Shown here piece after piece: positions 36,228-64,000 of a stretch of DNA of 64,000 nt. The notes under the pieces were generated by a model, which did not search any database, had not been told where the DNA came from, and saw nothing but the letters and a program-made list of their open reading frames with translations. The position numbers and the translations under genes were made by a program. This stretch comes from an uncultured Clostridium sp. (GTDB lineage Bacteria; Bacillota; Clostridia; TANB77; CAG-508): positions 87,198 through 151,197 of the forward strand of contig CAKNIZ010000001.1 in the NCBI GenBank assembly GCA_930980855.1. Direction: 5' to 3'. Position 1 is the first letter of the stretch. Every line of letters begins with the position of its first letter.

Positions 36228-36475
36228 TAAATCTCTCCTTTAAATATAAATTAATTTAGTGGCTTCATTGAGCAATTTTATAAAATGCTTGAAATCCTAT
36301 TTTTCTAATAAATTTCTTCAATATTTTTGCCTTGAAATATTGCTAATTTACAGCTACGGGAATAAATTCATTAAGATTAATTAGACTTTATTAAAATAAT
36401 AATTTTGCAATATTTCGCATTTATTATACCACATTTTTTTATTTTTTCAATTACTTAATCATCTTTTTTTTAATA

Positions 36476-37684
36476 TCATTTATTAAAAAAATCATCTATT
36501 TTCTCTATTTCTTTCTCTTTAAATTCATTAAACACATCTGTATATGTATTTAATGTTACTTGTATGTCTTTATGCCCTAATATTTTTTGAAGAACTACTG
36601 GACTAACTCCATTTTCTATACATCTAGTTGCAAATGTATGTCTTAGCATATGTGTATTTACTCTACTTTTTGTCATATCAAATTCATATACTTTTTTTAT
36701 TTTTCTTCCACTTTTTATGCTTGATCTTTTTTTATATACTCTAATATCTGCATTTTTACATAGTTTTTGAAATCTAGCATTAAAATTAGTAGCATGTATA
36801 AAACTTCCATTTTTCAAAAATAGAAATCCCTTTTTCTTATCTATTTTATATTCAATTAATTTATCGTACAGTACATTTAATATTGGCACATCTCTCATCC
36901 CTGCATAAGTTTTTGTTGTTTTTTCTAATAAAATTCTTCCTTTATCTACATGACTAAGTGTCTTTCTTACATATATTTTTTTATTTTCAAAATCTAGATC
37001 TTCCCTTTTTAGTGCCAAAATTTCACTTATTCTCATTCCTGTATAAATAGCTATATAAAATACAATAGTATAATCATCATATCCTTTATCTAACTCATTA
37101 ATAAATCTTTCTTGTTCTTTTATAGTCAATGCATCTACTTTTTTAGTTGCTTTATTAGACTTTGGTTTCATTAAATATCCTTTTAGTTCAAACGGATTTT
37201 TTTCTACAATATTCCTAATCCTCGCTTCATTGAATGCTCCTTGTAATTGTTGCCATACTTTGGTTATTACAGATTGTGAATATGAAACTAATACTTGGCT
37301 TTGAGAATTTATTATACTTCTTGTAACATTTTGAATTGGAATATTAGCATAGGGTAAAAGCTTTCTCATTATATCGATGCTTTCTCCTATTCTTATGTAT
37401 GATGCTCTTTTTATAGAATTAGTTTTATATTTTAGTTCTCTTATTTCTTCAGCTATATCTACTATTGATAAAGTATTGCCAACATCTTTCCCTGTTTGTT
37501 TTTCTCTTTGTAATAAATCTAATTTTTCTTTTACTTCTTTTCTTGTATCTCCATAAAATGTTTTTCTTATTTGTTTTCCATCTGAATTAACTCCTAAAGT
37601 AATTTGTCCTACCCATTTTTTCAATTTTTCTCTATAAAATATTGTTCCTTCTCCATTTCCTCTTTTACTTAAATTTCTTCCCAT
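36476..37684 (-). CDS. int: tyrosine recombinase/integrase, Tn916 Int-like
   Basis: The N-terminal KRGNGEGTI matches the Int-Tn DNA-binding domain. The C-terminal HMLRHTFAT...LGH...Y catalytic motifs are present. Confidence 0.9.
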   Translation of the reverse strand: MGRNLSKRGNGEGTIFYREKLKKWVGQITLGVNSDGKQIRKTFYGDTRKEVKEKLDLLQREKQTGKDVGNTLSIVDIAEEIRELKYKTNSIKRASYIRIGESIDIMRKLLPYANIPIQNVTRSIINSQSQVLVSYSQSVITKVWQQLQGAFNEARIRNIVEKNPFELKGYLMKPKSNKATKKVDALTIKEQERFINELDKGYDDYTIVFYIAIYTGMRISEILALKREDLDFENKKIYVRKTLSHVDKGRILLEKTTKTYAGMRDVPILNVLYDKLIEYKIDKKKGFLFLKNGSFIHATNFNARFQKLCKNADIRVYKKRSSIKSGRKIKKVYEFDMTKSRVNTHMLRHTFATRCIENGVSPVVLQKILGHKDIQVTLNTYTDVFNEFKEKEIEKIDDFFNK

Positions 37685-37711
37685 ATTTTCTCCTTTTCCT
37701 TAAATTGAAGA

Positions 37712-37969
37712 TCAGACAAATAATTGCTTTGCTATTTTTTCAAGTAGTACTTTTTTAGTTTCATCATCTGTGCAAAACTCATGAATAAATACTGCTCTTT
37801 TATCTGCAATAAGATTAGCTCCACAATTTTTAATTAAAGGAAAATTTAAACTATGAAATCTCTCCCTTGCCTTTACTATTCCTATTCCTCTCCAGTCCGA
37901 ATATATTTCTGGAGTAATTGTATCTGGCAAATCTTCAAATTTAATATTTGATTTTTTTACTTTCATCAA
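37712..37969 (-). CDS. small protein immediately upstream of int (positional excisionase candidate)
   Basis: Only position supports this. No recognisable Xis motif was found. Confidence 0.3.
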   Translation of the reverse strand: MMKVKKSNIKFEDLPDTITPEIYSDWRGIGIVKARERFHSLNFPLIKNCGANLIADKRAVFIHEFCTDDETKKVLLEKIAKQLFV

Positions 37970-38110
37970 ACCCTCCTATCTAAAATAGCTAGTCTTTGAT
38001 ATAATCAAAGACTAGCTGATTTTTTATTATTTTTGAAATGTATAAATCTTACTTTTCCACACTTGACACTATAATAATATTTTTATTTAAACATTATCTT
38101 CTACAAATCA

Positions 38111-38480
38111 TTACTTCTTATTTAATAAAATCTCTGCATATTGTTCTGCCTCTTTTTTAGAATGTAATTCTTGTAAAGGCTCATAAAACATTTGCATATT
38201 TTTTATATTTACTTCATTTGCAGAATTTAATAAATTATGTAATGCAATTAAACCGTATGAAACAACTTGTTTCCAATTATATGTTTTTCTTTCCATCATA
38301 ACCTCCAAAATTTTTTCTATTTATTTTCTTTTCTTGATATTCGTTCAAATATTTAATTTGTTCTTCATCCTCTAATTCTTGTTCTTCTGGTGTCTTTCTA
38401 CTTCCACCTATAATAATTAGAATTAAAGGTAGTCCTATTAATATAAAAATTAATGTAGCTATTGAAATAATATCTAACAT
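38111..38480 (-). CDS. two overlapping small ORFs (65 and 67 aa), one with a TM helix
   Basis: ORFs 38111-38308 and 38277-38480 occupy the position of Tn916 orf5. Confidence 0.25.
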
Positions 38481-38908
38481 TTCTTTTGCCTCCAGTTTTC
38501 TAATTAGGGCTATTGGGGGAATAACCCTAATTAAGATATTATTATTTTCTTACTTTTCCCATTTGTCAGACTGCTATTGTTTCTAGCAACATTGGAATTT
38601 CACCAACCAGAACTCTGGCTTGTACTCATTGCGTGTGACGCACCATTATAAAAGTATTATGGACTACCTTTATAACTTTACGCTCGTGCTGTGACTATAC
38701 AAAAGTTTCTTAAGCTGCATTCACAATAAGATAACATTCCTATTGTTAATTTAGATGGTCGCTACCCCACCTAAAACGCAACTCTTGTATGATCCAACAA
38801 ATACATTATTCAATTTTCAATGTGCAATCCATACCAGAAGTTTTTTACACTTCTACTATGAACAGCACTTGAAAACGAAAAAGGTTACGATTTTTTTTAT
38901 AAATTTTT

Positions 38909-39121
38909 TTATTTAGCCAATTTTTCTGCAAAATTTCCTTCTTTTACTACACTAATTGCGTATTCAATTAAAATACTTTTTAAATCTTGATCTATAACAT
39001 TTCTTTCATTTAATGAATATTTATCAATGAGAGGCATTATTTTTCCTATTACTAAAATCATTGATACTTCATCTGTTCTAGCTTTTACTAATATCTCATA
39101 AAACCTTGTTCTATTTTTCAT
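38909..39121 (-). CDS. small regulatory protein, Tn916 Orf8-position
   Basis: The 70-aa ORF overlaps the end of the sigma-like gene. Confidence 0.35.
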   Translation of the reverse strand: MKNRTRFYEILVKARTDEVSMILVIGKIMPLIDKYSLNERNVIDQDLKSILIEYAISVVKEGNFAEKLAK

Positions 39122-39530
39122 GATCGTCCTCCATATATTTTTTTAAATTATTTATTGCTCTTAATTTCAATTGTTTTACTGCATTTTCGTTTATATTCAT
39201 TTCTTCAGCAATAACTTTTATTTTTTTATTTTCATAATAGTATTTAACTATCACTTTCCTTTGATTTTCATTTAATTTACTTAAAGCAAACTTTAAATCG
39301 TTTTTACTAAAAAAAGAATGGTCAGAATTCCCCCTATTAGATAACTCTTTCCATTCTTCATTTGACATAGATATTTCCTTTTCTAATAAATATTTTTTAT
39401 GTCTTAAATAGTTTAGTCGCCTGTTTAATAAAGCCTTTCTCATATAATTTATGTATCTTGCAAATACAATATCATTTGAAAACTCTTTTTCTTGATATAT
39501 ACATTTTTCGTCAATATCCTTTCTTTTCAT
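39111..39530 (-). CDS. sigma-70 region-4-containing small sigma-like factor (Tn916 Orf7-like)
   Basis: The C-terminal LSKLNENQRKVIVKYYYENKKIKVIAEEMNINENAVKQLKLRA is a sigma region 4 HTH. Confidence 0.6.
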   Translation of the reverse strand: MKRKDIDEKCIYQEKEFSNDIVFARYINYMRKALLNRRLNYLRHKKYLLEKEISMSNEEWKELSNRGNSDHSFFSKNDLKFALSKLNENQRKVIVKYYYENKKIKVIAEEMNINENAVKQLKLRAINNLKKYMEDDHEK

Positions 39531-39919: not shown

Positions 39920-40651
39920 ATGTTTAAAATCATAATTGCCAATAATAATGATATTTTTTACAACAGCTTATCTAATATTCTTTTGCAAAATGAACTAAAT
40001 ATTGAACTAATGAAAGTACCACCAAACAAGTTAGGAAAACTAATTTGTAAAATCAAGCCAAAAGATAATGTAATAATATTGGACTCAAACACTTCACTTA
40101 CATTTTGTAGAAATGTATTGAAGAATGCAATGGAAAATGTAGATACTAAAAAAGTGAATATCATTATTTTGGTAGTCGACTCTAATAGCATATCCAATAT
40201 TAAATACGAATACCATTATCACTTTTTCAAAACTTCTAATCATACAAGCTTACTTGATATTGTAAAACTGGTGTCTGATTCATTAAAAGATTGTTTAGAA
40301 ATAGAAAAATCAATTAATGATTTATTAAATAGTCTTGGATTTACTTATTATTTTAAAGGAACTATTTATTTGAAAGATGCAATTCAATTTGCATATATTG
40401 AACGAAATTTATTATATGATACAAAAACACTTGTGAAAAAGGTTGCAAAAAGACATAAAATAAAAAACGATAGAATTGTTCGTTCTGATATGGATAGAGC
40501 CTTAAATAGTATGCTAACTTATATTGAAAAAGATAAGATTTACAATATTTTTGGAAAACATTATGATGGAAGAATAATTAGTTTAAAATATTTTATTGAC
40601 CTGTGTATTCGATATTTAGAAGAACAACGATATTGCTGTTTAGAAAATTAA
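39920..40651 (+). CDS. pseudo-receiver protein with Spo0A C-terminal-like DNA-binding domain
   Basis: The C-terminal half (GFTYYFKGTIYLKDAIQFAYIE...VAKRH..NDRIVRSDMDRAL...IFG) follows the Spo0A_C effector domain pattern. The N-terminal half is receiver-like but has IIIANNND in place of the acidic pocket. Confidence 0.55.
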   Translation: MFKIIIANNNDIFYNSLSNILLQNELNIELMKVPPNKLGKLICKIKPKDNVIILDSNTSLTFCRNVLKNAMENVDTKKVNIIILVVDSNSISNIKYEYHYHFFKTSNHTSLLDIVKLVSDSLKDCLEIEKSINDLLNSLGFTYYFKGTIYLKDAIQFAYIERNLLYDTKTLVKKVAKRHKIKNDRIVRSDMDRALNSMLTYIEKDKIYNIFGKHYDGRIISLKYFIDLCIRYLEEQRYCCLEN

Positions 40652-40801: not shown

Positions 40802-42731
40802 TTAGTATAATGTATCATCCTTTAACATATCCACAATATTTTTGTTCAAAATCTTTTTTCCACCAATATAATAAGCTATACTTACTGCTAATAAAATAAA
40901 TATTATATAGCAAAGTATTGGTATTATAGGCATATTATTTATATAATCAGACAATAATATTTGACTAGCGTTTAAAAATAATAAAACAATCGGAACATTT
41001 ATTATTAGGCTTATTATAATAGGTTTTAAACTTATTATTAATGCCTCATAAGTTAAAATCTTTTTTATACCTTTGCGTGATAATCCAATAGACATATATC
41101 TAGCAAATTCTCTTTTTCTTAAAGAAATTTGTGATATACAGTTTGAAAATACATTTACAATTCCAATCAATGCAAGAATTCCTGCTAAAGTCCAAATTAT
41201 AATTCTTAATCCGCTTCTTATATTCTTGTCAGAAGTCTCTTCTTGTATTCTATTTTGTATTTGATATTCAATTCCAGTAATTTTCTGTTCAATTTTATTT
41301 TGTATATCATATATTTCTGATATATTATTAATTTTTACATTAAAATATGTAGGATTATTCATCATATTACTATTAATTTTATTAGCATAACTTTCACTAA
41401 TTATTAAAACTAATTCGCATTCATATCTATTATATTCTTCTTTTAGATTAGGTAATTCTTGTGCATAATTTGTTATATATATAGTATATTTCTGTGATTC
41501 ATTATTTTTCTCAAATATTTCTAATTTTAAATTGTCTATTTCTTGTAAATATGGGATGTATTCTCCTTTTAAATTGTGATTCTTACTTTTCCATATCTTA
41601 TTTATTGCAACGCATTTTTCTTGTGCAGATAAATTACTACCGTTATTATTTTGCAAAGAATTATAATATCCATCAAAACTTACGTCGTCTAATATTATAA
41701 TTGGAATACCTATTTGATATTTTCCATTTTCATTCTCAGTAATATTCTCACTAATTACATCTAACCCACCTGCTACATTTAGTTCATTACTAAAGTATGT
41801 AGAATCTATTTCAGCATAAAAAGTACATTTTTTATAATTAATACATTCTTTAATTCCAGCCATATCTCTTATTTCTTGGGTAAGTTCATTTCTATTATTC
41901 ATATCTGGCATTTGGAACATTATATCCCATTTATCCCTATATCTTTCAAAGAATGTTTTATTAGTTGATAAATCTGATACTGTTTCAAAATTTAGAAATG
42001 TAATTAAAGCTAATGATGAACAAATAAATGCTCTTGTTGCTGTACGAAAACTTTTTTTTCGTGAATATATTGACTTCCTTGCTATTTCTCCTTCTATTCC
42101 AAAAATTTTAGAAAAAATCATAAATTTTTTCATTTTTTTAACTTTTGTATCATCTCTATAGAATATTGCATCCATAACTGAAACTTTAGCAATTTTTCTT
42201 GCAGGAATAGTCGCTGATATCCAAACTGTTATAAAAGAAATAGCAGCAGAAATAATAGCAACTAAAATATTATATCTAAAATATAGTTCAGAATCTCTTG
42301 CAAGCTCTGTTGCTTTAATTATAAATTGCATAAGAATATATGTTGCTACTATACCCAACAAGGTTCCGAATTACGATTGGAACTAAACTTAAAATTATAA
42401 CTTCATACCTTAATATTTGCTTAATTTGTTTTGGCGTTGCCCCTACACTTTTTAAAATTCCTAATTGATGTAATCTTGAATTCATTGACATAGCAAAAAT
42501 ATTATATATCATTAAGATTAACGAAAACATTGCCATAAATAATATAAATAGAAATGCAAAGATTTCCACTGTTGTTTGGGTTTGTCCTCTAGCAATATTA
42601 TCGGCATATAGATTGTAAAATATTCCTGTCAATAATGAAAGGAGCAATGAAGCAAGAAATGAAGTTATTGCTATTGAAACACTTGTTGTTTTATTATTTC
42701 TTATATGATTTATAACATATTCTTTTATCAT
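40802..42731 (-). pseudogene. BceB-type ABC permease (FtsX), frameshifted (ORFs 42315-42731 and 40802-42361)
   Basis: Ten TMs and a large extracellular loop are typical of bacitracin/lantibiotic-type permeases. Removing one base in ATTCGG (plus 42366-42373) joins ...VPIVIGTLLGIVATY... Confidence 0.7.
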
Positions 42732-42743
42732 TACATTACCTCC

Positions 42744-43423
42744 TTATCTTATATACTCATCTGATATAATTTTTCCATCTTCTATTCTAATGATTCTGTC
42801 TGCTTGTAAAGCTATGTTTTCATCATGTGTTATTAAAATTAAAGTCTGATTATATTTTTTATTGGAATACTTTAAAATTTCAATAATTTCTTGTCCATTT
42901 TTCTTATCAAGATTTCCAGTAGGTTCATCAGCCAAAATAATAGATGGTGCATTTATAAGAGCCCTACCGAATCGCAACTCTTTGTTGTTGACCACCAGAT
43001 AATTGATTTGGAAAATGTTTTTTTCTATTACTTAATCCTAACATATCTAGAAGTTCATTAACTCTATCTTCATTTATTTTTTGTTTATCTAATTTAAGTG
43101 GTAAAACCATATTTTCATAAACATTTAATATTGGTATTAGATTATAAAATTGATAAATAAGTCCAACATTGCGACGTCTAAAAATAGCAAGTTCTTCTTC
43201 ACTTTTTGTATATATTTCTTTTTTATCTACATAAATTTTACCGTGAAGTAGGAATGTCTACACCTCCCAACAAATGTAAAAGTGTTGATTTTCCAGAGCC
43301 AGATTGCCCTACTATTGCCACAAATTCTCCTTTTTTAACAGAAAAAGAAACATTGTTTAAAGCCACAACTTCATTTTCTCCTTTATAAATTTTAGTTAAG
43401 TTTTCAACTTTTAATATTTCCAT
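42744..43423 (-). pseudogene. BceA-type ABC ATPase with two frameshifts
   Basis: An N-terminal fragment with Walker [10 protein letters not shown] and a C-terminal fragment with ILADEPTG are in different frames. The middle translates to LSGGQQQRVAI in a third frame. Each break is resolved by removing one base in NNCGG. Confidence 0.7.
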
Positions 43424-43538
43424 ATAGATTACCTCCTAAATTTAATATAACACAAGTTTAGTGACACATCCGTGACTTTATTATTACAAATATGTCACTT
43501 TTAAATAAATATAAAAAACGAAACATTATGACTTCACA

Positions 43539-44555
43539 TTATGCTTCGTTAAAAAATTTAATATTAAATTCTGCACCTTTGTTTTCTCTATTTTTGGCAG
43601 TAATAACTCCATTTTGTTTTGAAACAATCATTTTAGTAAGGTACAGTCCAATTCCTATACCTTCACTACCACTATTGTTTCCTCTATAAAATCGCTCAAA
43701 CAAATGTGGTAAATCCTCTTTACAAATTCCTTTTCCCTCATCAGTTATAATTATTTCTGTATATATCGGATTGGTTTCTGATATAATTTCTATAATACCT
43801 CCATTTTCCGAATGTTCTATACAATTCTTTATTATATTTGAAATAGCTTCAACTGACCAATAATAATCTCCTTTATAATTCGTATTTTTTTCTATTTTTA
43901 ATTTCATTTTGATATTTTTGATTTCAGCTTGAATTTTTAACGGTTCTAATGATTTATTTACAACTTCTTCAACATTTGTTTTTTCTTTTTTTAACTTTAC
44001 AGTATCAGATTCCAATTGAGCTACTTTTAATAATGCTGTAATAAGCCACTCAATTCTTGTTAATAACTTACTTATTTCTTTTATCATTTTTAATCGATCT
44101 TCAAAAGTTAACTCCTGTCTTGATAATCTCGATATCATTATATTTATGGAAGTCATTGGAGTTCTAATTTGATGTGATATATCTGCTAAATAATCTTTCA
44201 AATAATTTTTTTCGTTTTCTAACCTTTCTGTTTGTTCCCTTAATCTAACTGTCATTTTATAAATTTCACTATTCAGAACTGCAAGTTCTCCCTCTTTATT
44301 CACATCAAAATTTGTATAATCATTATTATGTAATATTTTATCTATTTTATAAGTTAATTCACTAATATCATTATATCTTTTTTTCGTAAAGAATAACGAA
44401 ATAAATTCAATGACTAAACAAACTAATATAATATATATTGAGCAAATAATATTAATAAATAATGCTCCCAAAAATACAATAGTATTAAATATAACATATA
44501 TAATTATCTGTTTTTTTATTTCTTCATTTCTAAAAAGACTCATAACATTCTCCAA
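43539..44555 (-). CDS. intramembrane-sensing histidine kinase (BceS-like)
   Basis: Two closely spaced TMs with a minimal loop, a HisKA box (SHQIRTPM) and HATPase_c are present. Confidence 0.85.
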   Translation of the reverse strand: MENVMSLFRNEEIKKQIIIYVIFNTIVFLGALFINIICSIYIILVCLVIEFISLFFTKKRYNDISELTYKIDKILHNNDYTNFDVNKEGELAVLNSEIYKMTVRLREQTERLENEKNYLKDYLADISHQIRTPMTSINIMISRLSRQELTFEDRLKMIKEISKLLTRIEWLITALLKVAQLESDTVKLKKEKTNVEEVVNKSLEPLKIQAEIKNIKMKLKIEKNTNYKGDYYWSVEAISNIIKNCIEHSENGGIIEIISETNPIYTEIIITDEGKGICKEDLPHLFERFYRGNNSGSEGIGIGLYLTKMIVSKQNGVITAKNRENKGAEFNIKFFNEA

Positions 44556-45216
44556 TTTTATAACCTATTCCTCTAACTGTTTTTATTATAATAGGATTTG
44601 TAGGATTATCTTCTATTTTTTCTCGTAATCTTTTTATATAAACAGTTAAAGTATTATCATTAACAAATTCTCCTGCAATATCCCAAATTTCTTCTAGTAA
44701 TCTACTTCTAGACATAATTTCTCCCTGATGATTTATAAATAGTAAAAGTAATTTATATTCTAAAGCTGTCAATACAACTTCTTTGTCATTCTTTGATACA
44801 CTACCTTTTATAGTATCTACCTTTAAATTTGTAATTTTAAAAACTGATGGAGATTTTTTATATCTTCTTAATTGATTTTTTATTCTTGATATGAGTTCTA
44901 AAGGCTTAAATGGTTTTGAAATATAATCATCAGCACCAACATCGAAACCTGTTACAATGCTATACTCATCTTTCATTGCTGTAAGTATAATAATCGGAAT
45001 ATCAATTTTCTTTTTTATTGAATTACAAATGGAAAATCCATTTCCATCTGGCAATATTAAGTCTAATAAGATTAAATCAAATTTATTTTTTTCCAACATT
45101 TTTTCTAGTTCTGATTGTTTAGATATCGATTCTATAGAAAATCCATTCTCTTTAAGTAAAAGAGTTAAATTTTCAGTTATTTCTTTGTTATCTTCCACTA
45201 TTAAAATATGATTCAT
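44530..45216 (-). CDS. OmpR-family response regulator (BceR-like)
   Basis: A receiver domain (ILIVEDNKE...LLDLILPDGNG) and a winged helix (GIGYKI) are present. Confidence 0.9.
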   Translation of the reverse strand: MNHILIVEDNKEITENLTLLLKENGFSIESISKQSELEKMLEKNKFDLILLDLILPDGNGFSICNSIKKKIDIPIIILTAMKDEYSIVTGFDVGADDYISKPFKPLELISRIKNQLRRYKKSPSVFKITNLKVDTIKGSVSKNDKEVVLTALEYKLLLLFINHQGEIMSRSRLLEEIWDIAGEFVNDNTLTVYIKRLREKIEDNPTNPIIIKTVRGIGYKIGECYESF

Positions 45217-45254
45217 ATCATTTTTTCCACCTTTATTTATTACTTCTTATTTTT

Positions 45255-45818
45255 TTACTTTTTTAAGCATATTTCTAATATCTTTCTCATAGTATTAGCT
45301 GTTCTTATTGTTATTGAATTACTAATTTCTGTACTTGCTGTTTTACTCCACCAATTTGATTTCCTATAATTTTTTAAATCAAAAGACCAAAAAATATTAT
45401 TTTTATATTCTTGTATTTTTTCATATTCATTTGGAGAACCTATTGCAGCAAATACTTCTTTATAAGTAGTCGGTGGAATAATAAATATTATATTATCATA
45501 TATCTCTTTATTATCTTTTCCCCACCATTCTGGACTATTACTCATCAATTCTTCTAATTCCTGTGAAGTTGTAACATAAGTTGGTATATCAAATTCAAAT
45601 TTATCTTTTATCATTATTTGTATATTATTTATAATTTCATTTTTATTATTTATATTACTTTCAAAAATTATATTGCCACTATTTAGATAAGTTGTTACTT
45701 CTTTAAATCCTAAATTGGTAAATTCTTTTTTTAATTTGCTCATTGCAATTTTGTTTTTTCCACTAATATTTATTCCTCTCAATAATGCTATATATTTCAT
45801 AATACTTCTCGCTTTCAA
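45255..45818 (-). CDS. DUF1697 family protein
   Basis: MKYIALLRGINISGKNKIAMSKLKKEF...SGNIIF matches the DUF1697 N-terminal signature. Confidence 0.65.
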   Translation of the reverse strand: MKARSIMKYIALLRGINISGKNKIAMSKLKKEFTNLGFKEVTTYLNSGNIIFESNINNKNEIINNIQIMIKDKFEFDIPTYVTTSQELEELMSNSPEWWGKDNKEIYDNIIFIIPPTTYKEVFAAIGSPNEYEKIQEYKNNIFWSFDLKNYRKSNWWSKTASTEISNSITIRTANTMRKILEICLKK

Positions 45819-45895
45819 ATTACTATTTTTATTATCATATCATAAAAAAAAAAATTACTCTATACTTTCATATAAAGTAATTTTAAAATCGTAAT

Positions 45896-46417
45896 TTATA
45901 TTGTTGATAGTATAAAAGCAATAAAATTTGCAACGAATGGGATAATCATACACAAAGCCCACAATAATAAGTTTTTATCATTAGTTTGTTTATATTTATA
46001 AAAATATACAACTGCTGAAAATCCAAATAATAAAGTTGTGTAGCCAGAACATTCTAAATCTTTAATAAGAGAATATACAATAATAATTGTAATTGTTAAT
46101 AATATAAATACAGTTCCAATAGTAACACTTTTATAGTGATTGAACTCTGATAATTTTATAAGATTTTCTTCTGACTTTTCTTTTATTTTATCTTCTGGTA
46201 TTTTTTCACCTGATAAAATATCATTTACACTAACATTTAATATTTCACTTAATGGTTTTAAAAGCGACATATCCATTAAGCAAATTCCTCTTTCCCACTT
46301 GCTAACTGCATTTTTGCTTATATTTAATCTTTCTGCTAATTGCTCTTGAGTTAGTTTTTTATCTTTACGACAACTTGCAATAAATTGACCTATTTTTACT
46401 TTATCCATACTTACCAC
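45896..46417 (-). CDS. XRE-family HTH regulator with C-terminal TM segments
   Basis: LTQEQLAERLNISKNAVSKWERG is an HTH motif, followed by three hydrophobic helices. Confidence 0.7.
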   Translation of the reverse strand: MVSMDKVKIGQFIASCRKDKKLTQEQLAERLNISKNAVSKWERGICLMDMSLLKPLSEILNVSVNDILSGEKIPEDKIKEKSEENLIKLSEFNHYKSVTIGTVFILLTITIIIVYSLIKDLECSGYTTLLFGFSAVVYFYKYKQTNDKNLLLWALCMIIPFVANFIAFILSTI

Positions 46418-46515
46418 CTCTTTATTAACAATTTAGCATAAAAATTATTTATTTTCCACACACTATAGGTTTATTTTAAAAAAACATACCTACAGTTTAC
46501 TTATTAAATTGTAAT

Positions 46516-46737: not shown

Positions 46738-47027
46738 TTTTTGAAATATATAGTACCAATAATATTATTCCTGTTAGATTAATTCCTATTGATAAACCTA
46801 ATAGCAGACCTGAACTAAATTCACTAAATGGTGTGGCTTCATTACTACAAAAGAAAGTATAAGCCAAGTACAATATATTTCCTAATATTATTAATAATAT
46901 TCCAGTTTTTCCTTTATTCATAAGTAATCCTCACTTTCAAATTACTATCTTTTGTTAGTATTATATAATAAAGAGTATATAATTTCCACCTTATTACCTA
47001 CTTTACTTATTGTAATTTATTACTAAG

Positions 47028-47612: not shown

Positions 47613-47636
47613 TTTATTTATCTCCTCTATAAATTA

Positions 47637-51795: not shown

Positions 51796-54130
51796 TTAAT
51801 CCCTCTCCTGGTCTTGTTGTCATTAGCTTATATAGTTCTGTGTTCTTTGGAAATCTATTAGAAAATGGAACTAATGCAGATCCTACCTTTATTAGACCTT
51901 CTCCTGCTCCTACATTTGTTATATAACTCATTTGTAAATCTGATATATTAAGAAGTTTTGCAAGTTCTACTCTGTCTGTACTTGCTTGATTAAGCATTAT
52001 AATAAATTCAGAGTTTGCAAGCATTGTTCTAGCAGTATGACTTTGCAATAAATCTTCTACATTTTGAGTTATACCAGTTGCAAATGCCCCATATTTTCTG
52101 ACTCTTTTCCAAAGTGTAAATAAGAAATTTGCAGAATATTCATATTGAAATAGTAAGTATATTTCATCTATAAAAATATATGTATTTTTTCCTTTTGTTC
52201 TATTAGCTGTAATTCTATTCAAAATTGAATCAAGCACAACTAACATTCCTAAAGGTAGTAGTTGTTTACCTAAGTCCAAAATATCATAACTAATTAAGCT
52301 ACTTGAAGTATTTACATTGGTATTCATTGCAAAAGTATTTAATGAGCCATTCGTAAATAATTCAATAGCAAGTGCTATTTCTTTTGCTTCTTCTTCTGGT
52401 TGATTTAATAATTGCTCTCTAAAATCTTGCAATGTAGGTGGTATGCCTTGATAATTACCTTGTTGAAATACCCTATAAACATTTGCTGTGCATCTATCAA
52501 TAATAGACTTTTGTTTCGGTCCGAGATTTCCACTACCTATTAACTGCTCACACAGAGACAGGATGAATTCAGATTTTAAGATGACAGGATTTGCTCCATC
52601 TCCATATTCTGAGTTCATGTCCATTGCATTTATATGATTATCGCTTGTAGCAGATATTTTAATTACTTCTCCATTAAAAGATTTAACTAATGGTGCATAT
52701 TCTCTTTCTGGATCTATTATAATTATGTCTGCATTTGGATCTCTTAATCTAATAGATAAAATTTCTTGTTTTGCCGTAAAGCTTTTTCCACTTCCACTAA
52801 CTCCAAGAATAAAAGAATTTCCATTTAATAATTGTCTTCTATCTGCAATAATCATATTTTTACTGATAGCATTTTGACCATAAAAAATACCATCCTTGTG
52901 CCTTATCTCTTGCACTTTGAATGGCATAAATACAGCTAATGACTCAGTTGTCAAAGTTCTTAAAGCATCTATTTTTCTTACTCCAAAAGGTAATACCGTT
53001 TGAAGTCCGTCTAACTGTTGATATTTTAAAACACCTAATTGGCATAAGTTTTTACTAGCAATTTGTTTAATAGCCTCTGTATCACTTTCTAATTTTTCTT
53101 TGGTATCATCAGTAATTATAACTGTTATAACTACTAAAAACATTCTTTGATCTCGCAGAGTTAAATCATCTAAAAATTCTTTAGAGTCATTTCGTTGTTG
53201 TTCCATATCATAAGGTATTATGCTACTCCAATTATTATTAGCATTCTGTTTTCTTTGCCAATTAGTAATATTTGTTTCTACTCCTAGCCTTCTATTTTCT
53301 GCCTCTTTAACTGCCTCATCAGTAGGAATTGGAATTATATCTACTGATAACATCATGTTTCTATTTAAGTCTGTTAGTTCAGAAACCATACTGTCATTTA
53401 TGTAGCTTGCATATTCCTTTAAGAAAAAGGCTCTACCATACCTATTTCCGATCATAAAATAATCTTTTTCAAATTCAGCAGTATCTGGACAAATAAAATC
53501 TTTGAAATCATGACCTTTTTTCATTGTTTCGTGTATGTCAAAATGAAAAGATGTTTCTTCTCCTGTTCTATAAAAGTCATGTGCTATTCTTAGTCTTTCT
53601 TTTGCATTTAATTCTATACATTTTGAGCCTAAAGTATTAAAACGATTCATTAGCTCTGTACTTGCTCTTGTAAAGTAATTTCTAGCTTCTTCTACACTAT
53701 CTTTATATACAGATATCGTAATAATTTTTTCTTGTACTATTTCATTTGCATCTTTTGCCTGATTTATCAGCATTTGATTATATTCGTGCCTATACTCATC
53801 TAATTCATCATTAGCATCTTTTAATAGTATTGTTTTTTCAAAATCTAATTTATTTATTCTTCTATTATTTATAGTTATTTTAGTTGTTGCTCCTGTATCT
53901 AAAGAATTAAGCAGAGAAGAATAGTCTAAAAACATTGCCTCTTTATCTTCTCTGCTTGCAACTTCATAATTTATATCTAAAAACTTATATGATTTCGAAT
54001 ACTTATTTTTTCCTACTAAAAAAATACCATCTTCCCATATAGCTTTCACGGGAATTATATCTTGCACACATTTTGGTACTTTAAATTTTTCTTTATCTAA
54101 TTTAAATATTCTTTTTAGTGTCTTCAGCAT
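51788..54130 (-). CDS. VirB4-family conjugative ATPase (Tn916 Orf16-like)
   Basis: Walker A GVSGSGKSF and Walker B IFIDE motifs are present in a 780-aa protein. Confidence 0.9.
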   Translation of the reverse strand: MLKTLKRIFKLDKEKFKVPKCVQDIIPVKAIWEDGIFLVGKNKYSKSYKFLDINYEVASREDKEAMFLDYSSLLNSLDTGATTKITINNRRINKLDFEKTILLKDANDELDEYRHEYNQMLINQAKDANEIVQEKIITISVYKDSVEEARNYFTRASTELMNRFNTLGSKCIELNAKERLRIAHDFYRTGEETSFHFDIHETMKKGHDFKDFICPDTAEFEKDYFMIGNRYGRAFFLKEYASYINDSMVSELTDLNRNMMLSVDIIPIPTDEAVKEAENRRLGVETNITNWQRKQNANNNWSSIIPYDMEQQRNDSKEFLDDLTLRDQRMFLVVITVIITDDTKEKLESDTEAIKQIASKNLCQLGVLKYQQLDGLQTVLPFGVRKIDALRTLTTESLAVFMPFKVQEIRHKDGIFYGQNAISKNMIIADRRQLLNGNSFILGVSGSGKSFTAKQEILSIRLRDPNADIIIIDPEREYAPLVKSFNGEVIKISATSDNHINAMDMNSEYGDGANPVILKSEFILSLCEQLIGSGNLGPKQKSIIDRCTANVYRVFQQGNYQGIPPTLQDFREQLLNQPEEEAKEIALAIELFTNGSLNTFAMNTNVNTSSSLISYDILDLGKQLLPLGMLVVLDSILNRITANRTKGKNTYIFIDEIYLLFQYEYSANFLFTLWKRVRKYGAFATGITQNVEDLLQSHTARTMLANSEFIIMLNQASTDRVELAKLLNISDLQMSYITNVGAGEGLIKVGSALVPFSNRFPKNTELYKLMTTRPGEGLNE

Positions 54131-54554
54131 TGTTATCTACCTCCTTTTTTAACTTTTTAGGCTTCTTATTTTTCTTTTCTTTATGCTTATGTTGTGGTTT
54201 TACTAATCCATTTTTCAAATTTCTTTCTATTGTAGGTTTAAAAACTTCTGCATAAATATTTTTGGATTTAAAAGTTAATCTCTTTGGTGTAATAAATTCG
54301 GATTTAATAAATGCTACAATAAATTTTTCAGCAGTCATTCCGTTATATTTAACAAAACCTAAAACAGCAAAAGGTGCTGCTCCTAAAATACATATCCAAG
54401 ATAATGTTTCTATTCCAAAAAAAGGTTTTAATGTAAAGTATAGAATTACTGCTATCACACAAGCCAATAAGGAAAAAATGAACTGACGCATAGTCAGTCC
54501 AAAAAATATACTTTCACTAAATTCTCTAATATCTTTGTTTATTTTAACTTCCAT
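54102..54554 (-). CDS. VirB3/PrgI-like small conjugal membrane protein
   Basis: Two TMs, overlap with the virB4 start and a Lys-rich tail are present. Confidence 0.5.
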   Translation of the reverse strand: MEVKINKDIREFSESIFFGLTMRQFIFSLLACVIAVILYFTLKPFFGIETLSWICILGAAPFAVLGFVKYNGMTAEKFIVAFIKSEFITPKRLTFKSKNIYAEVFKPTIERNLKNGLVKPQHKHKEKKNKKPKKLKKEVDNNAEDTKKNI

Positions 54555-54555
54555 C

Positions 54556-54885
54556 TACCTTGCCTCCTTACTTCTATTTTTGATTTTCTCTTTTAAATCT
54601 ATACTTTTGGGCATTGTTGTTTTTAAAATACTTATTTTATCTTCCATAAGTTCATACAAATCATATTTTGGCATTTCAGCCATTCTTTTAGCTATATCTA
54701 CCATATCAGTATAAAACTCTGGTTCATAGAAATGGTCTTTTTCGCTTATATCTTTTTTTTAATTTTTTACAAAAATTATCATCTTGTAAATTTAATCTTC
54801 CATATTCTATCAATAATTTTAAAGCTCCCATATTTTGAACACTATAATTTTCACCTAATAATTTTCTATAATTTTTTTCCTCCAT
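54556..54885 (-). pseudogene. unannotated small conjugation-module gene split at an A8 homopolymer
   Basis: MEEKNYRKLLGENYSVQNMGALKLLIEYGRLNLQDDNFCKKLKK shifts into ...DISEKDHFYEPEFYTDMVDIAKRMAEMPKYDLYEL... at a T8 run on the plus strand (54753-54760). Both ends carry a GGAGGCAAGGTAGATGGA junction. Confidence 0.4.
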
Positions 54886-55194
54886 CTACCTTGCCTCCCT
54901 CTTTTTTGATTTTTCCTGTTTTGTCTTAACTTTGTTTTCGTCATACCATTTTTCAAATTTTTTCCATTCTTTTTCATTCATAACAACATCTTCAATAAAA
55001 ATTGGTTTACACTTTCTATGCAAATCAAACATTTTATCTTCCCACTCTTTAATGTTTTCAATACTTCTAATATCTTTAATGCCTTGATGCCATTCATGTA
55101 CTTTTCCAAAAGTTCTTATATATTCATCTAATGCTTCATATTTCTTATTTCCTAATTGCATTCTTAACTTTTCATAATCTTGTGATATACTCAT
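54886..55194 (-). CDS. hypothetical protein (102 aa)
   Basis: The ORF lies within the conjugation operon, and its stop overlaps the next start. Confidence 0.35.
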   Translation of the reverse strand: MSISQDYEKLRMQLGNKKYEALDEYIRTFGKVHEWHQGIKDIRSIENIKEWEDKMFDLHRKCKPIFIEDVVMNEKEWKKFEKWYDENKVKTKQEKSKKREAR

Positions 55195-55208
55195 TTTTAT
55201 ACCTCCAC

Positions 55209-55484
55209 TTATCTTTCTTTTTGTATTTTATTCTTTATTTTTTCTATTACTCCAAACTGTGGATAAGATCTATAACACCTGCTAAAATAATGTTTAAAGT
55301 AATCTTTGCCGTTTTCGGAGTACATATACATCCAGTCTTCTGGATTTTTCATTCCTCGTTTTATAGCATTATCAAATGCATCATCTAGATTCTCTCTTAT
55401 TTTCATACCTTCAAATATACTTCCTTTTGGGTGTACTAAATATTTAATTCCTTTTTCCTCTATATGTATAAAATCCTTACTCAT
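55209..55484 (-). CDS. hypothetical protein (91 aa)
   Basis: The ORF lies within the conjugation operon. Confidence 0.35.
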   Translation of the reverse strand: MSKDFIHIEEKGIKYLVHPKGSIFEGMKIRENLDDAFDNAIKRGMKNPEDWMYMYSENGKDYFKHYFSRCYRSYPQFGVIEKIKNKIQKER

Positions 55485-55505
55485 ATTTTGTTGCTCCTTT
55501 CATCT

Positions 55506-56342
55506 CTATATTCCCATCATTTCTCTTACAATTCTGTCTGATAGTCTAATAGTACCAACTAAGACTAACATATTGAAAATAAGTTCTCCTATATATTTCC
55601 ATACCATATTTACTGGCTCTGCTCCTGTTGCTACTACTGGTGGCGATGTTGCAAATGCAGAAAAAATAATACAAGCAAGTACAATTATTGCACCCTCAAG
55701 ACATACTGCTATATAACTTTTTAAAAAGCTTTTCCCTATATTTTGCGTTGTTTTTCCTGCGAATGATGCCAACGGTACAGGTGCTATTGCTGTATACATA
55801 TATAGTTTAAAAAATCTTCCATAAACAGTAAGAATCAATATGAAAGATAATACTGTAACGAACAGTCCTCCCAAAATTGTTACTGCCCATAGAGGAATGC
55901 TCTCAAAAAATCCACAGTTATTTACTGCATCTATAATTTCTTGTGGTAAAGTCATACTACTTGCTTGAAATGAGGTTTTTGACATTATTGTTGTAACTAT
56001 TCCTTGTATAATTCTAAAAACAGCTAACATTAAATCTAGTCCATAAGTTACTATTCCTTTTGCAATGGCAAATCTTAAAAAAAGTTTTAAAGCTTGCTCT
56101 GGTCTTTTAATTTCAGAAAAATTAGTACAAGTTCTAACTACTCCAATTACAAAAAATAAAACAAGCAATGCTAGTCCAACCGCTTGCAATGCTCCATTTA
56201 TATTGACTATTATTTCCCATATAGTTCCACCTTTAAAACTCGAAGGACTTTGTGTAACCAAAGTATAAATTTCAGATAGTTTTCCATTCCATGTATCTAA
56301 CGCATTTTGCAAATTTCCTACAATCCAATTCAAACTAAGCAC
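55506..56342 (-). CDS. VirB6/TrbL-like polytopic conjugal membrane protein
   Basis: About six TM helices and the position in the T4SS cluster support the call. Confidence 0.5.
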   Translation of the reverse strand: MLSLNWIVGNLQNALDTWNGKLSEIYTLVTQSPSSFKGGTIWEIIVNINGALQAVGLALLVLFFVIGVVRTCTNFSEIKRPEQALKLFLRFAIAKGIVTYGLDLMLAVFRIIQGIVTTIMSKTSFQASSMTLPQEIIDAVNNCGFFESIPLWAVTILGGLFVTVLSFILILTVYGRFFKLYMYTAIAPVPLASFAGKTTQNIGKSFLKSYIAVCLEGAIIVLACIIFSAFATSPPVVATGAEPVNMVWKYIGELIFNMLVLVGTIRLSDRIVREMMGI

Positions 56343-56910
56343 CTCCTATCTTGTAATCTTCCATTCTAATATCACTTTCTATTTCATTTCCCCACGCATC
56401 CCATCCTGGCACTTTTTCTCGTGCAAAAAGTTCAATTTTTGATAAATCTCCAACTAGTTCTATAATTTTATCTCTTACTATTGCTGGCTTACGGCTATGT
56501 TGTTCTATTGGAGTATCAATTATTTGATGTACTTTCTTACTAATTCTTTTAACTTTTCCTTTTGTAGCAATCAAACATAATTCCGAATTAGCTCTTGTCC
56601 AATATCCCATACCCCAAAACCATGAATCACTTTTTTTATTTTTCTTTACCCAAGTAAATCCACAGGTCTTATACTTAAATCCCCATGCATCTATAACTTT
56701 TAAAGCTTCTTTCAAACATGGATAAGTAACCCATATAAATAAAATACAATTTTTGTCAGAAATTTTATTTATAAATTCTTTTAGATTAATAATATCTTCT
56801 ATATTCATAGTTCTATAATGACTTTCAGCACTTCTTCCATTTCCTTTTTTTGACCATACTTTATATTGCCATGGAGGATCAGCATATATTATTTGATATT
56901 TTTTCTCCAA
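56335..56910 (-). CDS. MT-A70-like N6-adenine DNA methyltransferase (orphan)
   Basis: IIYADPPWQY is the DPPW catalytic motif. No adjacent restriction gene is present. Confidence 0.75.
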   Translation of the reverse strand: MEKKYQIIYADPPWQYKVWSKKGNGRSAESHYRTMNIEDIINLKEFINKISDKNCILFIWVTYPCLKEALKVIDAWGFKYKTCGFTWVKKNKKSDSWFWGMGYWTRANSELCLIATKGKVKRISKKVHQIIDTPIEQHSRKPAIVRDKIIELVGDLSKIELFAREKVPGWDAWGNEIESDIRMEDYKIGGA

Positions 56911-56962
56911 CTTAATTTCCTCCTTAAATGAATTTTAGGCAGATATTATATCTGCCTATGTT

Positions 56963-57310
56963 TTAACCACCTGTTATTAAACTTAAAATCTCTTTAGAGA
57001 ATGTAATTACTATACCTCCTGCTAAAGTCATTATTCCGTTTGCTCTTTGTGTAGGATCATGAGATTTCAAACTCATACCAACTTGTACTACTCCAAAGCC
57101 TAGAATAATCATACCCACAGCTCTAATTAAACCAAATATAAAATCTGACAAATTATTTATTACTGTAAGAGGATCATCATTTGCTCCGAAAACATTTAAT
57201 TGTTGTGCAACATTTAATGCAATTATATAACCTATAATTATTGCACCTCTTTTACAAATCTTTTTTAAAATTTTCTTTCCTTTTTCTTTTCTTTCCATCA
57301 TATTTTTCAT
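56963..57310 (-). CDS. VirB2/TrbC-like pilin-like membrane protein
   Basis: The 115-aa ORF has a basic N-terminus and two hydrophobic helices. Confidence 0.4.
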   Translation of the reverse strand: MKNMMERKEKGKKILKKICKRGAIIIGYIIALNVAQQLNVFGANDDPLTVINNLSDFIFGLIRAVGMIILGFGVVQVGMSLKSHDPTQRANGIMTLAGGIVITFSKEILSLITGG

Positions 57311-61930: not shown

Positions 61931-62067
61931 ATCTCTCCCTCCTGTTATTCAAACTAAATAATGGGGATTGGGGCTAGCCCCATTGAATAGAATTTTGAAA
62001 CACGATATTTCCGTGTGAACAAATTCATTGCTTGCTAGGACAAGAAATCTAATTTTTGTATATAAAA
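61931..62067. promoter_or_regulatory. candidate oriT / promoter region upstream of mobC-relaxase
   Basis: Inverted repeats AATGGGG-ATTGGGGCTAG-CCCCATT and CACG-ATATTTC-CGTG lie in an otherwise AT-rich gap. Confidence 0.4.
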
Positions 62068-63069
62068 CTATACTTGTATATGTTCCTTATTTTGTGTTTT
62101 ATTTACTTTATATTGTTCTATTTCTTGTCTTCTCTTTAATCCTAACTTGTAACATAAATAATCATTTATGTCTTTTCCATAAGGTGCAGGAATATCATAT
62201 ATATTGTACTTATTTAAAGCTATTATAAGTGCTTTGGTTGCATTTCTTCCTGTTCTATCATTATCAAAATGAAGTACAATATTTTCAATATTTGTATTTT
62301 TTTCTAAAAAATTTTTTACTGCTATTGGTACTTTACTTTGTTCTATATTATTCCCTGGTTGATATACACCTGCAAGTGCTAATAGGTTTTGATTTTGATA
62401 ATCATAGCCTTTTAGTTTTAATAATGTTGCATAAGATAATAAATCTATGCTGCTTTCAAAAATATGTAATGTATTATTCTTTATTTTGCTTAACAGTCTA
62501 AAAGAAAACTCTTTTGAACTACCTTTTGCATCTCGCATTATTCTTTTTTCATTTGTACTTCTACACCCTGCATATTTAATATTATGATCATAATCATAAC
62601 CCACAAAAACTACATTATTTGTCTTATTTTCCTGGTATATTAGTTTTTGATTTATGCAATCTAAAATAATATCTTCATCAATTCCTCTACTTTTTAAATA
62701 GTCTACAACCTCTTTATTGGTACTTGCTTTTTCTGGAATAATTATCTTTCTAGGTACATTATTTATTTCTGTTTTGTGTACTTTATAGGTACTAATATCT
62801 TTATTTAATACATTTTTAACAGCTTCTTGTAGTGTCATCTTTTCAACTTTCATTAAATAATCTACTGCTGTTTTTCCTGCCTCATTAGTAGAAAATCTAT
62901 GCCATAATCCATTACTTATAATGACACTATCGTGAGATTTTAAGGAATAAGTACTAGCACCTTTTTTTACAAGTTCTGATGGATTATTATTCATAAAATA
63001 AGTTAGCAAATCTATCTGTTTTGCTTGTTTTACAATCTCTTTTGGTATAAATGCTGACATTAACTGCAC
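62068..63069 (-). CDS. DUF3991/Toprim-domain primase-like protein
   Basis: The N-terminal DUF3991-like region and the C-terminal Toprim acidic motif (VLHFDNDRTGR) are typical of Gram-positive ICEs. Confidence 0.65.
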   Translation of the reverse strand: MQLMSAFIPKEIVKQAKQIDLLTYFMNNNPSELVKKGASTYSLKSHDSVIISNGLWHRFSTNEAGKTAVDYLMKVEKMTLQEAVKNVLNKDISTYKVHKTEINNVPRKIIIPEKASTNKEVVDYLKSRGIDEDIILDCINQKLIYQENKTNNVVFVGYDYDHNIKYAGCRSTNEKRIMRDAKGSSKEFSFRLLSKIKNNTLHIFESSIDLLSYATLLKLKGYDYQNQNLLALAGVYQPGNNIEQSKVPIAVKNFLEKNTNIENIVLHFDNDRTGRNATKALIIALNKYNIYDIPAPYGKDINDYLCYKLGLKRRQEIEQYKVNKTQNKEHIQV

Positions 63070-63115
63070 CTCCTTTTTGTATTTTTAGGCATAAAAATAA
63101 GGTACTAGATTTTTT

Positions 63116-63319
63116 CTAATACCTTTCTATATAATACAGATCATTGATATTAACTTTTAATGCTTTTGCAATTTTAATAGCAAATATTAAACTTGGCATT
63201 TTGTAATTACTTTCTATATCATTTAAGTGTGTGGTAGATATTCCTGTCTTATATGATAATTGTTTTAGAGTAAGTCTTTGTTCTTTTCTAATGTCTTTTA
63301 CAATAAATTTAATTACCAT
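63116..63319 (-). CDS. XRE-family HTH regulator
   Basis: LTLKQLSYKTGISTTHLNDIESN is an HTH motif. Confidence 0.6.
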   Translation of the reverse strand: MVIKFIVKDIRKEQRLTLKQLSYKTGISTTHLNDIESNYKMPSLIFAIKIAKALKVNINDLYYIERY

Positions 63320-63971
63320 TATAAAAACTCATTGCCTCTTTTATTCCCAATTTAAAACACAAATCTTTTTCCATATCTCCCATTTCTACATCTATTTTTC
63401 TAAGTTCAATAAGTGCTTTTTGTTCTTCTTTATTAAGCTCTATAAATTCTAAATCTTCAAACACTTCTGTTGCATTAGGGTACTTTTCACTAATTTTTCT
63501 GTACCTGTCTTGCAATTCTTTATACTCTGGTGTATCAAAGCAATATTTTCTTTTTTGTTCTTCTAACCACTCTGAAAAATTATTATTGCCATAGTTTAGA
63601 AATGAATCATCATCTTTTTTAATAGATTTTTTAGGTGTAATTTCATGTGCCAATTTATTGCCTTCTACAATACCTAACTTAAAATAAATTAGTCCCCAAA
63701 AGTCTGTTTCTTCACTAGCTTTTAATTCATAATTTCTAAATAATTTTAATACATTTTTAAGTTCGTTTTCATCTGTTATAATATTTTTTAAATGATTCAC
63801 AAATCCTTCAGATAAATCAGTTATCTCTAATTCTAATTTCTTTATTTGTTCATCTTCATTATATAAATTTTGTTCAAATTCTTCTTTTCTAAAAGAATAT
63901 AACTGATCTAAAACAGGTTTATTAAATATTTCTTTCATTTCAACTTTCCTCCTTGCCTGGAAGTATAACAC
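63309..63971 (-). CDS. hypothetical protein (220 aa)
   Basis: The ORF is clean and overlaps the XRE gene start. No motif was recognised. Confidence 0.35.
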   Translation of the reverse strand: MLYFQARRKVEMKEIFNKPVLDQLYSFRKEEFEQNLYNEDEQIKKLELEITDLSEGFVNHLKNIITDENELKNVLKLFRNYELKASEETDFWGLIYFKLGIVEGNKLAHEITPKKSIKKDDDSFLNYGNNNFSEWLEEQKRKYCFDTPEYKELQDRYRKISEKYPNATEVFEDLEFIELNKEEQKALIELRKIDVEMGDMEKDLCFKLGIKEAMSFYNGN

Positions 63972-64000
63972 TATATTTTACTTTATAGAAATGTGCAAAA

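Follow-up and report, generated by a model that had tools for sequence, protein, structure and literature searches.

A 64,000-nt stretch of contig CAKNIZ010000001.1 from an uncultured Clostridium sp. (the window, on which all coordinates are based) contains the int-proximal ~27.7 kb of what is very probably an integrative and conjugative element (ICE) of ~47 kb, which a site-specific tyrosine recombinase has placed in the 3' end of lysS, the host gene for lysyl-tRNA synthetase. Its limits are well defined, it seems to be intact, and it has evidently moved between species in the recent past. Insertion at the lysS 3' end has already been published for ICEs and for vanD islands; what is new is the combination of a CTn4/Tn1549-type conjugation module with a lysS-specific integrase in a 47-kb element of 26% G+C from uncultured Clostridia.

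The gene set of a generic ICE is complete, with integrase (PF00589), relaxase (PF03432), coupling protein (PF02534/NF045973) and VirB4 (NF045971), and the element has the discrete ends, direct repeats and empty site in related genomes that go with it. Families were called with Pfam and NCBIfam on the element open reading frames (ORFs), and PHROGs and PDB sequences served for extra searches. A preliminary description of the window, made from its letters alone, had proposed an ICE, and this reading is upheld by the integrase, MOBP relaxase, VirD4 and VirB4 together with the empty sites in the same species. The ORFs listed there are present on the minus strand with the domain content given, and the gene classes named are matched in Pfam and NCBIfam at the same coordinates. 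G+C is ~27% across the whole window, the element showing no compositional step. The window has a single Rfam match, tRNA-Trp at 6720-6791, and the same scan found no Rfam family inside the element.

Integration in the 3' end of lysS

Looking up the M50 protein of the window retrieved conspecific contigs whose flanks are 99% identical, two of them empty (L018, L019) and two occupied (L020, L021). In the empty contigs a 495-aa gene stops 20 nt before the M50 ATG, and this gene is lysS (TIGR00499, 680 bits against a cutoff of 428). The empty site reads ...TTATTCCCAACAATGAAGCCACTAAATTAATTTATATTTAAAGGAGAGATTTAATG and the reverse strand of the window reads ...AAAATTGCTCAATGAAGCCACTAAATTAATTTATATTT...; because identity between the two starts at CAATGAA within lysS, the target in the window is the last lysS codons (..F-P-T-M-K-P-L-N-stop), and the M50 gene is therefore merely the downstream neighbour. 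The core CAATGAA, common to the element end and lysS, lies 37-43 nt upstream of the M50 ATG, and the crossover is located in this core or at the next base. The host-derived lysS remnant beside it (Table 1) forms the B' arm of attR, on the int side, and is followed directly by the ribosome-binding site and ATG of the M50 gene. The preliminary description had thus correctly placed the int-proximal junction inside the 248-bp gap between int and the M50 gene. Its insertion upstream of the site-2 protease (M50) gene holds insofar as M50 adjoins the junction, the target proper being the lysS 3' end. Element-free loci in related genomes, the comparison it had proposed, are available in the same species.

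The same position is used in other hosts. On the int side the P arm is kept up to ...GCTCAATGAA and is followed by a host-specific lysS tail (11 sequences); the 13 nt past the conserved end vary like a coding tail and finish in TAA or TAG. The same junction is found in loci of metagenome-assembled genomes (MAGs) and in elements with a 78-84% identical integrase, which likewise end in TTC[A/T/G]ATGAARCC, and ~20 int-side junctions from different hosts use the same lysS position. In the int-distal alignment of copies, conservation ends abruptly after ...ATTTTATAAAATTGCTCAATGAA. Three marks of a lysS 3'-end element are found: the last codons are hit, a short direct repeat is formed and the lysS reading frame is preserved.

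That the element runs past the window end, as first described, is seen in L011-L017, L041 and L094-L103. In near-identical copies the continuation comprises a VapD-like gene, a second variable cargo slot, a 96-aa gene, a 521-aa helicase-C protein and a 1759-aa SNF2/methylase-like, 'polyvalent' protein. A metagenome scan with the 1759-aa protein gave L041, in which the far end directly follows lysS and carries a 205-aa ORF, ParA, ParB, a 230-aa protein and a 1411-aa SpaA-repeat protein. ParA (PF13614) and ParB are likewise at the far end in L094-L103, outside the window, and the 1411-aa protein terminates in VPKTG, a hydrophobic segment and KKNK, the signature of a sortase substrate.

Ten more far-end junctions were fetched through the 205-aa protein family. 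Eight of these, plus L041 and L093, are in lysS. In all ten fetched junctions the invariant ACCATTGGCATAG AACATTAGCAAATT... comes straight after ...ATGAA, and the sequence before ATGAA is host-specific; the constant far-end sequence after the host ...ATGAA is ACCATTGGCATAGAACATT. On the far side, lysS runs up to ...ATGAA and is completed by a replacement tail, after which AACATTAGC... begins. This tail reads ACCATTGGCATAG in the ten fetched loci and ACCATTGAACTAG in L093, and in L041 it differs solely at the first base after ATGAA, a base which would therefore fit the overlap of strand exchange. Since the ten fetched far ends carry a constant tail, the element brings its own replacement for the end of lysS, and the essential synthetase gene stays intact because the far end supplies it; in the terms of this host, ..MKPLN-stop becomes ..MKPLA-stop. 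L095 and L003 are on one contig and provide both ends of a copy, with 47,292 bp between them and the 11-bp direct repeat ATGAAACCATT on either side; this puts the element size at about 47.3 kb.

These junctions allow the recombining sites to be written down, with a slash at the joint. The attB would be ...TTCCCAACAATGAA/RCCnnTnnnnTAR, covering the last lysS codons ..F-P-T-M-K-P-L-x-stop, and the inferred attP ...AAAATTGCTCAATGAA/ACCATTGGCATAGAACATTAGC..., with a predicted joint sequence AAAATTGCTCAATGAAACCATTGGCATAGAACATTAGC. Recombination would occur within or just after (C)AATGAA, integration would leave the original 13-nt lysS tail of the host beside int, and excision is predicted to restore attB as ...TTCCCAACAATGAAGCCACTAAATTAATTTATATTT.

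Copies in other hosts

An identical 402-aa integrase occurs in 1308 blocks of the assembly collection, beside lysS-tail/M50 loci in different hosts. In nine of the ten fetched places the integrase has an M50-TsaD-metallophosphatase cluster downstream; that the hosts differ is clear from the genes past this cluster, which are not the same, and from flanks that are only ~70% identical. The L003 copy is 99.97% identical to the window ICE over the comparable 11.4 kb, with host flanks at about 70%. Genome matches to the element are all MAGs, namely Ca. Scatovivens faecipullorum and uncultured Clostridia, Clostridium or Bacilli from human and chicken samples; the MAGs that carry the relatives with a 78-84% identical integrase bear the names MGBC and Lapin, which apparently stand for mouse and rabbit gut.

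Such a distribution bears on whether the window holds a fixed, decaying genomic island, the remnant of an ICE that no longer moves. Decay would be suggested by the IS110 fragment, by the lack of an attP joint in the scan described below and by at least three frameshifts in the cargo ABC transporter. To judge by its reading frames, this BceAB-like transporter (40802-43420), next to a two-component system, is a pseudogene and dead. The same broken gene calls (61, 83, 138 and 509 aa) are made in copies from other hosts (L003, L004, L007), so that the lesions are genuine and move along with the element. Dead cargo is thus carried from host to host, which speaks against a fixed island. The recombination and conjugation ORFs are, moreover, all full length, with lengths identical to those in many other copies, nearly identical DNA sits between strongly diverged flanks, and the element is polymorphic within one species. 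We regard a decaying island as improbable.

Some observations do weigh against a mobile, lysS-specific ICE. The far end of the window copy lies outside the window and is a reconstruction from near-identical copies elsewhere. A scan of viral contigs, the sole collection scanned, gave no match to the attP joint pattern, and no circular joint was recovered; for excision and transfer at the present day the evidence is indirect, namely near-identical copies in different hosts. For two of the ten fetched far ends (L097, L101) there is no intact lysS at the junction, and secondary or tandem sites therefore occur. No convincing promoter was found between the hairpin at the far end (described below) and the first far-end gene. 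Finally, the 84-aa candidate excisionase, assigned by its position upstream of int, where it is kept at 77-99% in all relatives, has no family match in Pfam, NCBIfam or PHROGs, and a profile of its homologues gave nothing credible in PDB sequences. The putative xis of the preliminary description is thus not confirmed, and the protein keeps a candidate role as recombination directionality factor. A single-sequence AlphaFold model of the protein was unusable (predicted local distance difference test score, pLDDT, 47).

Atypical junctions were seen at several loci. The far-end junction of L101 (1587-2166) stands in a non-lysS context (...GTAACAGAA/ACCATTGGCATAG) beside a Y1 transposase fragment, and is either a secondary-site insertion or a rearrangement. 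In several hosts (among them L002 11415-11486, L024 2100-2215 and L035 4430-4470) a second far-end terminus (TAG AACATTAGC...) or its hairpin comes immediately after the int-side junction, and in L097 (2120-2166) the far end has only a lysS-like 3' fragment before it; these arrangements suggest either tandem accretion or traces left by other elements with the same att site. In L092 (1270-2580) the far-end backbone, with the 205-aa gene, ParA, ParB and hairpin kept, is preceded not by lysS but by a 436-aa tyrosine integrase (Phage_int_SAM_3 and Phage_integrase domains), which differs from that of the lysS element. Many human-gut contigs (L047-L082) have the ParA-ParB backbone at 75-79% nucleotide identity with no lysS nearby. 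The backbones of L092 and L047-L082 point to exchange of integration modules.

Family of the conjugation module

By the NCBIfam equivalog models conju_CD1110 and conju_CD1115, which are named after genes of C. difficile CTn4, the conjugation module is of the CTn4/Tn1549 type. VirB4 and VirD4 belong to these CD1110 and CD1115 families, the MOBP relaxase is accompanied by a MobC-type accessory protein, and ParA is on the element. The MOBP/VirD4/VirB4 type is that of the Tn1549 family in the Tn5252 superfamily and is unrelated to the Tn916 conjugation module (Ambroset et al., PMC4701971); ParA is typical of Tn1549-family ICEs (PMC4701971). Matches to PF18895 and PF19478 in the core of the type IV secretion system (51788..57310) are both weak.

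Together, the MOBP relaxase with NikA/MobC, VirD4, VirB4, the VirB3, VirB6-like and pilin-like proteins and the CHAP hydrolase would make up the transfer apparatus. A single strand should be transferred from an oriT, probably near mobC. The class B sortase of the ICE probably anchors its VPKTG adhesin for mating contact, and the pair suggests a self-contained mating-adhesion system.

The int-proximal end had been described as a Tn916 right-end module with an Int-Tn-type integrase, and the element could in principle be a Tn916-type conjugative transposon with an Int-Tn/Xis-Tn module, inserted with low specificity in the promoter region of M50. The order of sigma-like gene, small ORFs, xis-sized ORF and int with a divergent regulator does resemble the Tn916 end, and the nearest solved structure to the integrase is Tn1549 Int (E=4e-20, over the catalytic domain only). 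The resemblance is one of gene order: neither the Tn916 Int N-terminal domain PF02920 nor Xis PF09035 was matched in Pfam at E<=0.01. A Rep_trans (MOBT) relaxase and an FtsK-type coupling protein were not found, the relaxase being PF03432 MOBP and the coupling protein VirD4/PF02534. Among 72,556 plasmids the sigma-like protein had no Tn916 orf7-like match, its sole match being a 31%-identical sigma factor of a Clostridium tetani plasmid. Such a collection should include Tn916-bearing plasmids. Nor was low-specificity insertion of the Tn916 kind (AT-rich or bent DNA, coupling sequences) observed: nearly all junctions are at the same lysS codons, with one position in ~20 int-side and ten far-side junctions from different hosts. 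A Tn916-type transposon is thus very unlikely and already largely refuted, and of the label 'Tn916/Tn1549 superfamily' the Tn1549 half stands for the transfer genes and the Tn916-type, low-specificity integration falls. A further label, 'orf8-like' for 38909-39121, is not supported by any family in Pfam, NCBIfam or PHROGs.

An integrated conjugative plasmid, or a plasmid-like element that is mainly episomal, would account for the ParA/ParB partition genes and the Toprim primase-like gene, but is scarcely credible, since there was no megablast match in the 72,556 plasmids, the relaxase reached at most 38% amino-acid identity to any plasmid (the plasmid-backbone check proposed at the outset, which came out in favour of an ICE), every long contig examined is chromosomal at lysS with the integrase at the element end, and ParA is, as said, usual in ICEs of this family. 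ParA/ParB suggest that an extrachromosomal phase of the ICE is maintained. A prophage was also considered and rejected: there are no phage structural genes, and the PHROG matches are to integrase and sigma/regulator families only.

Anatomy, cargo and related elements

Table 1. Features of the element and its int-side flank, in window coordinates (strand '.' where none applies)
Feature	Position	Strand	Evidence or remark
M50 peptidase, host flank	35481-36227	-	ATG at 36225-36227
Host-derived last 13 nt of lysS, GCCACTAAATTAA	36251..36263	-	encodes ..(K)PLN-stop; identical to empty site in L018, L019
Core CAATGAA common to element end and lysS	36264..36270	-	codons ..T-M-K; int-proximal ICE end
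Arm repeat, 52 bp, TAATAAAGTCTAATTAATCTTAATGAATTTATTCCCGTAGCTGTAAATTAGC	36342..36393	-	local alignment of right end with L041 left end
Outward sigma-A-type promoter candidate	36423..36450	-	consensus match: TTGAAA, 16 nt, TGnTATAAT
Tyrosine integrase, 402 aa	36476..37684	-	PF00589, E=3e-26
Candidate excisionase (directionality factor), 84 aa	37712..37969	-	position only
Palindrome, near-perfect 15-bp stem, T-runs both sides	37986..38018	.	between small ORFs and excisionase candidate
Three small conserved ORFs: 38111-38308, 38277-38480 (membrane-like peptide), 38909-39121	38111..39121	-	called in all copies
Sigma-70 region-4/ECF-like protein	39111..39530	-	PF04545, PF08281; TIGR02937 superfamily, 49.7 bits
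Divergent regulator, Spo0A_C-type DNA-binding domain	39920..40651	+	PF08769, E=2e-8; in every copy
Right-hand cargo region	40802..49182	-	Pfam, tblastn; varies between copies, 36243-40775 being common
BceAB-like permease, frameshift-split	40802-42361 + 42315-42731	-	Pfam, FtsX-type pieces
ABC ATPase, three pieces in three frames	about 42765-43420	-	tblastn
Histidine kinase	43539-44555	-	Pfam
Response regulator	44530-45216	-	Pfam
DUF1697	45255-45818	-	Pfam
HTH/DUF6442	45896-46417	-	Pfam
Unknown ORFs	within 40802..49182	-	cargo
IS110 N-terminal fragment	48733-49182	-	149-aa ORF, only N-terminal 40 transposase residues
Cro/C1-type HTH protein, cargo/conjugation boundary	49487..49783	+	PF13443, E=5e-12
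CHAP-domain cell-wall hydrolase with transmembrane segment	49826-51007	-	PF05257
Class B sortase	51025-51795	-	PF04203; TIGR03064 srtB, 153.4 bits vs cutoff 153.75
VirB4 ATPase	51788-54130	-	NF045971 conju_CD1110, 1020 bits vs cutoff 325
PrgI/VirB3	54102-54554	-	PF12666; two small ORFs come next
VirB6-like membrane protein	55506-56342	-	weak, E=0.005
MT-A70 methyltransferase	56335-56910	-	PF05063
VirB2/pilin-like protein	56963-57310	-	weak match
VirD4-type coupling protein	57398-59227	-	NF045973 conju_CD1115, 533 bits vs cutoff 250; PF02534
DUF3801/PcfB-like protein	59438-60211	-	PF12687; small ORF between it and VirD4
MOBP-type relaxase	60218-61615	-	PF03432, E=7e-41
NikA/MobC relaxosome accessory protein	61619-61930	-	PF21983/PF05713
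Weak oriT candidate, imperfect 15-nt inverted repeat upstream of mobC	61990..62026	.	73% complementary; role inferred
DUF3991/Toprim primase-like protein	62068-63069	-	Pfam
HTH_3 regulator	63116-63319	-	Pfam
DUF6664 protein	63309-63971	-	Pfam; listed ORF 220 aa, called gene starts later (209 aa)

The sigma-like protein is the presumed activator of the element and, with the divergent Spo0A_C-type regulator, probably controls excision and transfer. The three small ORFs that follow have no family matches in Pfam, NCBIfam or PHROGs. The palindrome after them looks like a bidirectional terminator and could gate read-through into the excisionase candidate and int. The arm module (about 52-60 bp, AT-rich) is repeated directly 115-180 bp inside the far end and is kept in the integrase relatives, which makes it a candidate arm-type binding region for Int and Xis.

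The promoter candidate lies ~150 nt inside the int end and points across the element end toward M50-tsaD. It is the best consensus match in 35400-40800 (11/12 with an extended -10), and its hexamers are invariant in eight sequences over a region with a mean column identity of 69%, and do not vary in relatives with an only 78-84% identical integrase. A structured RNA in the 146-nt leader from promoter to core was considered and rejected, its stability being that of shuffled sequence (z = -0.5). At the far end a hairpin with a 13-bp stem, followed by UUUUUAUUU (-13.7 kcal/mol, z = -3.5), immediately precedes the first gene and its ribosome-binding site.

Because lysS and M50-tsaD are only 20 nt apart here, and presumably were co-transcribed before the insertion, the element would cut their operon. 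The far-end hairpin would stop read-through from lysS, and the conserved outward promoter probably keeps M50-tsaD expressed. It is a tentative proposal, for which we would claim less than even confidence, that the element is built to sit in an essential operon, the rewritten lysS tail, the far-end hairpin terminator and the outward promoter at the int end compensating for a 47-kb separation; expression of tsaD would then depend on the ICE, or alternatively the promoter fires across the joint only in the circular form, in the manner of Tn916, as a switch coupled to excision. The hairpin, with no obvious promoter after it, is the reason to think that the outward promoter might serve the circular form and not the host genes.

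The region between the divergent regulator and the CHAP hydrolase gene had been described as cargo, and it does differ between copies. The ORF at 48733-49182 looks like an insertion sequence remnant at the edge of the cargo. The host chromosome has an intact paralogous module at 20842-26074 (an 874-aa FtsX permease, ABC ATPase, kinase and response regulator), 36-42% identical to the ICE cargo proteins of L001 used as queries. In the second cargo slot, which extends from the 96-aa gene to the VapD-like gene and is outside the window, relatives carry an erm-like rRNA adenine methylase (PF00398) and an ANT(6)-like aminoglycoside nucleotidyltransferase (PF04439) (L013 6282-8446, L014 7050-7907); in L012 the slot contains MerR together with an ABC transporter and an intact IS110. 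Elsewhere in the host flank, two 130-bp segments (30951-31080 and 31332-31461) are 85% identical and lie near 214-aa and 357-aa ORFs, in a kilobase of raised G+C (0.37).

The junctions give base-precise attB, attL and attR, with an inferred attP, for a very widespread ICE of uncultured low-G+C gut Clostridia of humans and animals, and the annotation is corrected from Tn916-type to CTn4/Tn1549-type, with lysS as the target gene. The hotspot is the one by which vanD resistance islands enter enterococci. With this hotspot in common, and with erm-like and ANT(6)-like genes in its relatives, the family could plausibly carry resistance genes from one gut anaerobe to another.

The closest parallels in transfer genes are the modules of CTn4 (C. 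difficile 630, CD1091-CD1118) and Tn1549 (ConjTn5252 superfamily, PMC4701971). They share the CD1110/CD1115 VirB4 and VirD4, the MOBP relaxase with MobC, PrgI, the CHAP hydrolase, the DUF3801 protein, a far-end ParA and modular cargo. CTn4, however, has a G+C of 46.6%, against about 26% here, and sits in a surface-protein gene (PMC3158075); the element is therefore a relative of CTn4 and not CTn4 itself. Tn1549 inserts with low specificity, whereas the present element is lysS-specific, and its Int resembles the element Int only distantly, over the catalytic domain. The element differs from both in having its own sortase B and VPKTG adhesin. With Tn916 it shares the order at the int end (regulator, sigma-like gene, small ORFs, xis-sized ORF, int) and an outward promoter near that end, but for relaxase, coupling protein, Int arm-binding domain and Xis the families either differ or were not detected here, and Tn916 is promiscuous where this element is site-specific.

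In target choice the parallels are different. Insertion in the lysS 3' end with a direct repeat containing CAATGA has been described (PMC8301612, PMC8725431, PMC4701971). The vanD islands of enterococci and gut Eubacteriales use it with the repeat TTCCCAACAATGA, 17 bp from the gene end (PMC8301612, PMC8725431). These islands (Tn6711-Tn6713 and the AA620 type) have the identical lysS position, gut anaerobes as hosts and a tyrosine integrase at one end, and some have a type IV secretion system at the end opposite the integrase; they differ in size (112-200 kb), in G+C (about 44%) and in carrying vanD, and their repeat overlaps the element arm in CAATGA(A) only. Three streptococcal ICEs with ICESt3-type modules also use the lysS 3' end, with direct repeats of 13-17 bp (PMC4701971). 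Like the present element they combine a site-specific tyrosine integrase with direct repeats and a preserved target gene, although their ICESt3-type modules are of the Tn916 superfamily and those described here are of the Tn1549/CTn4 type.

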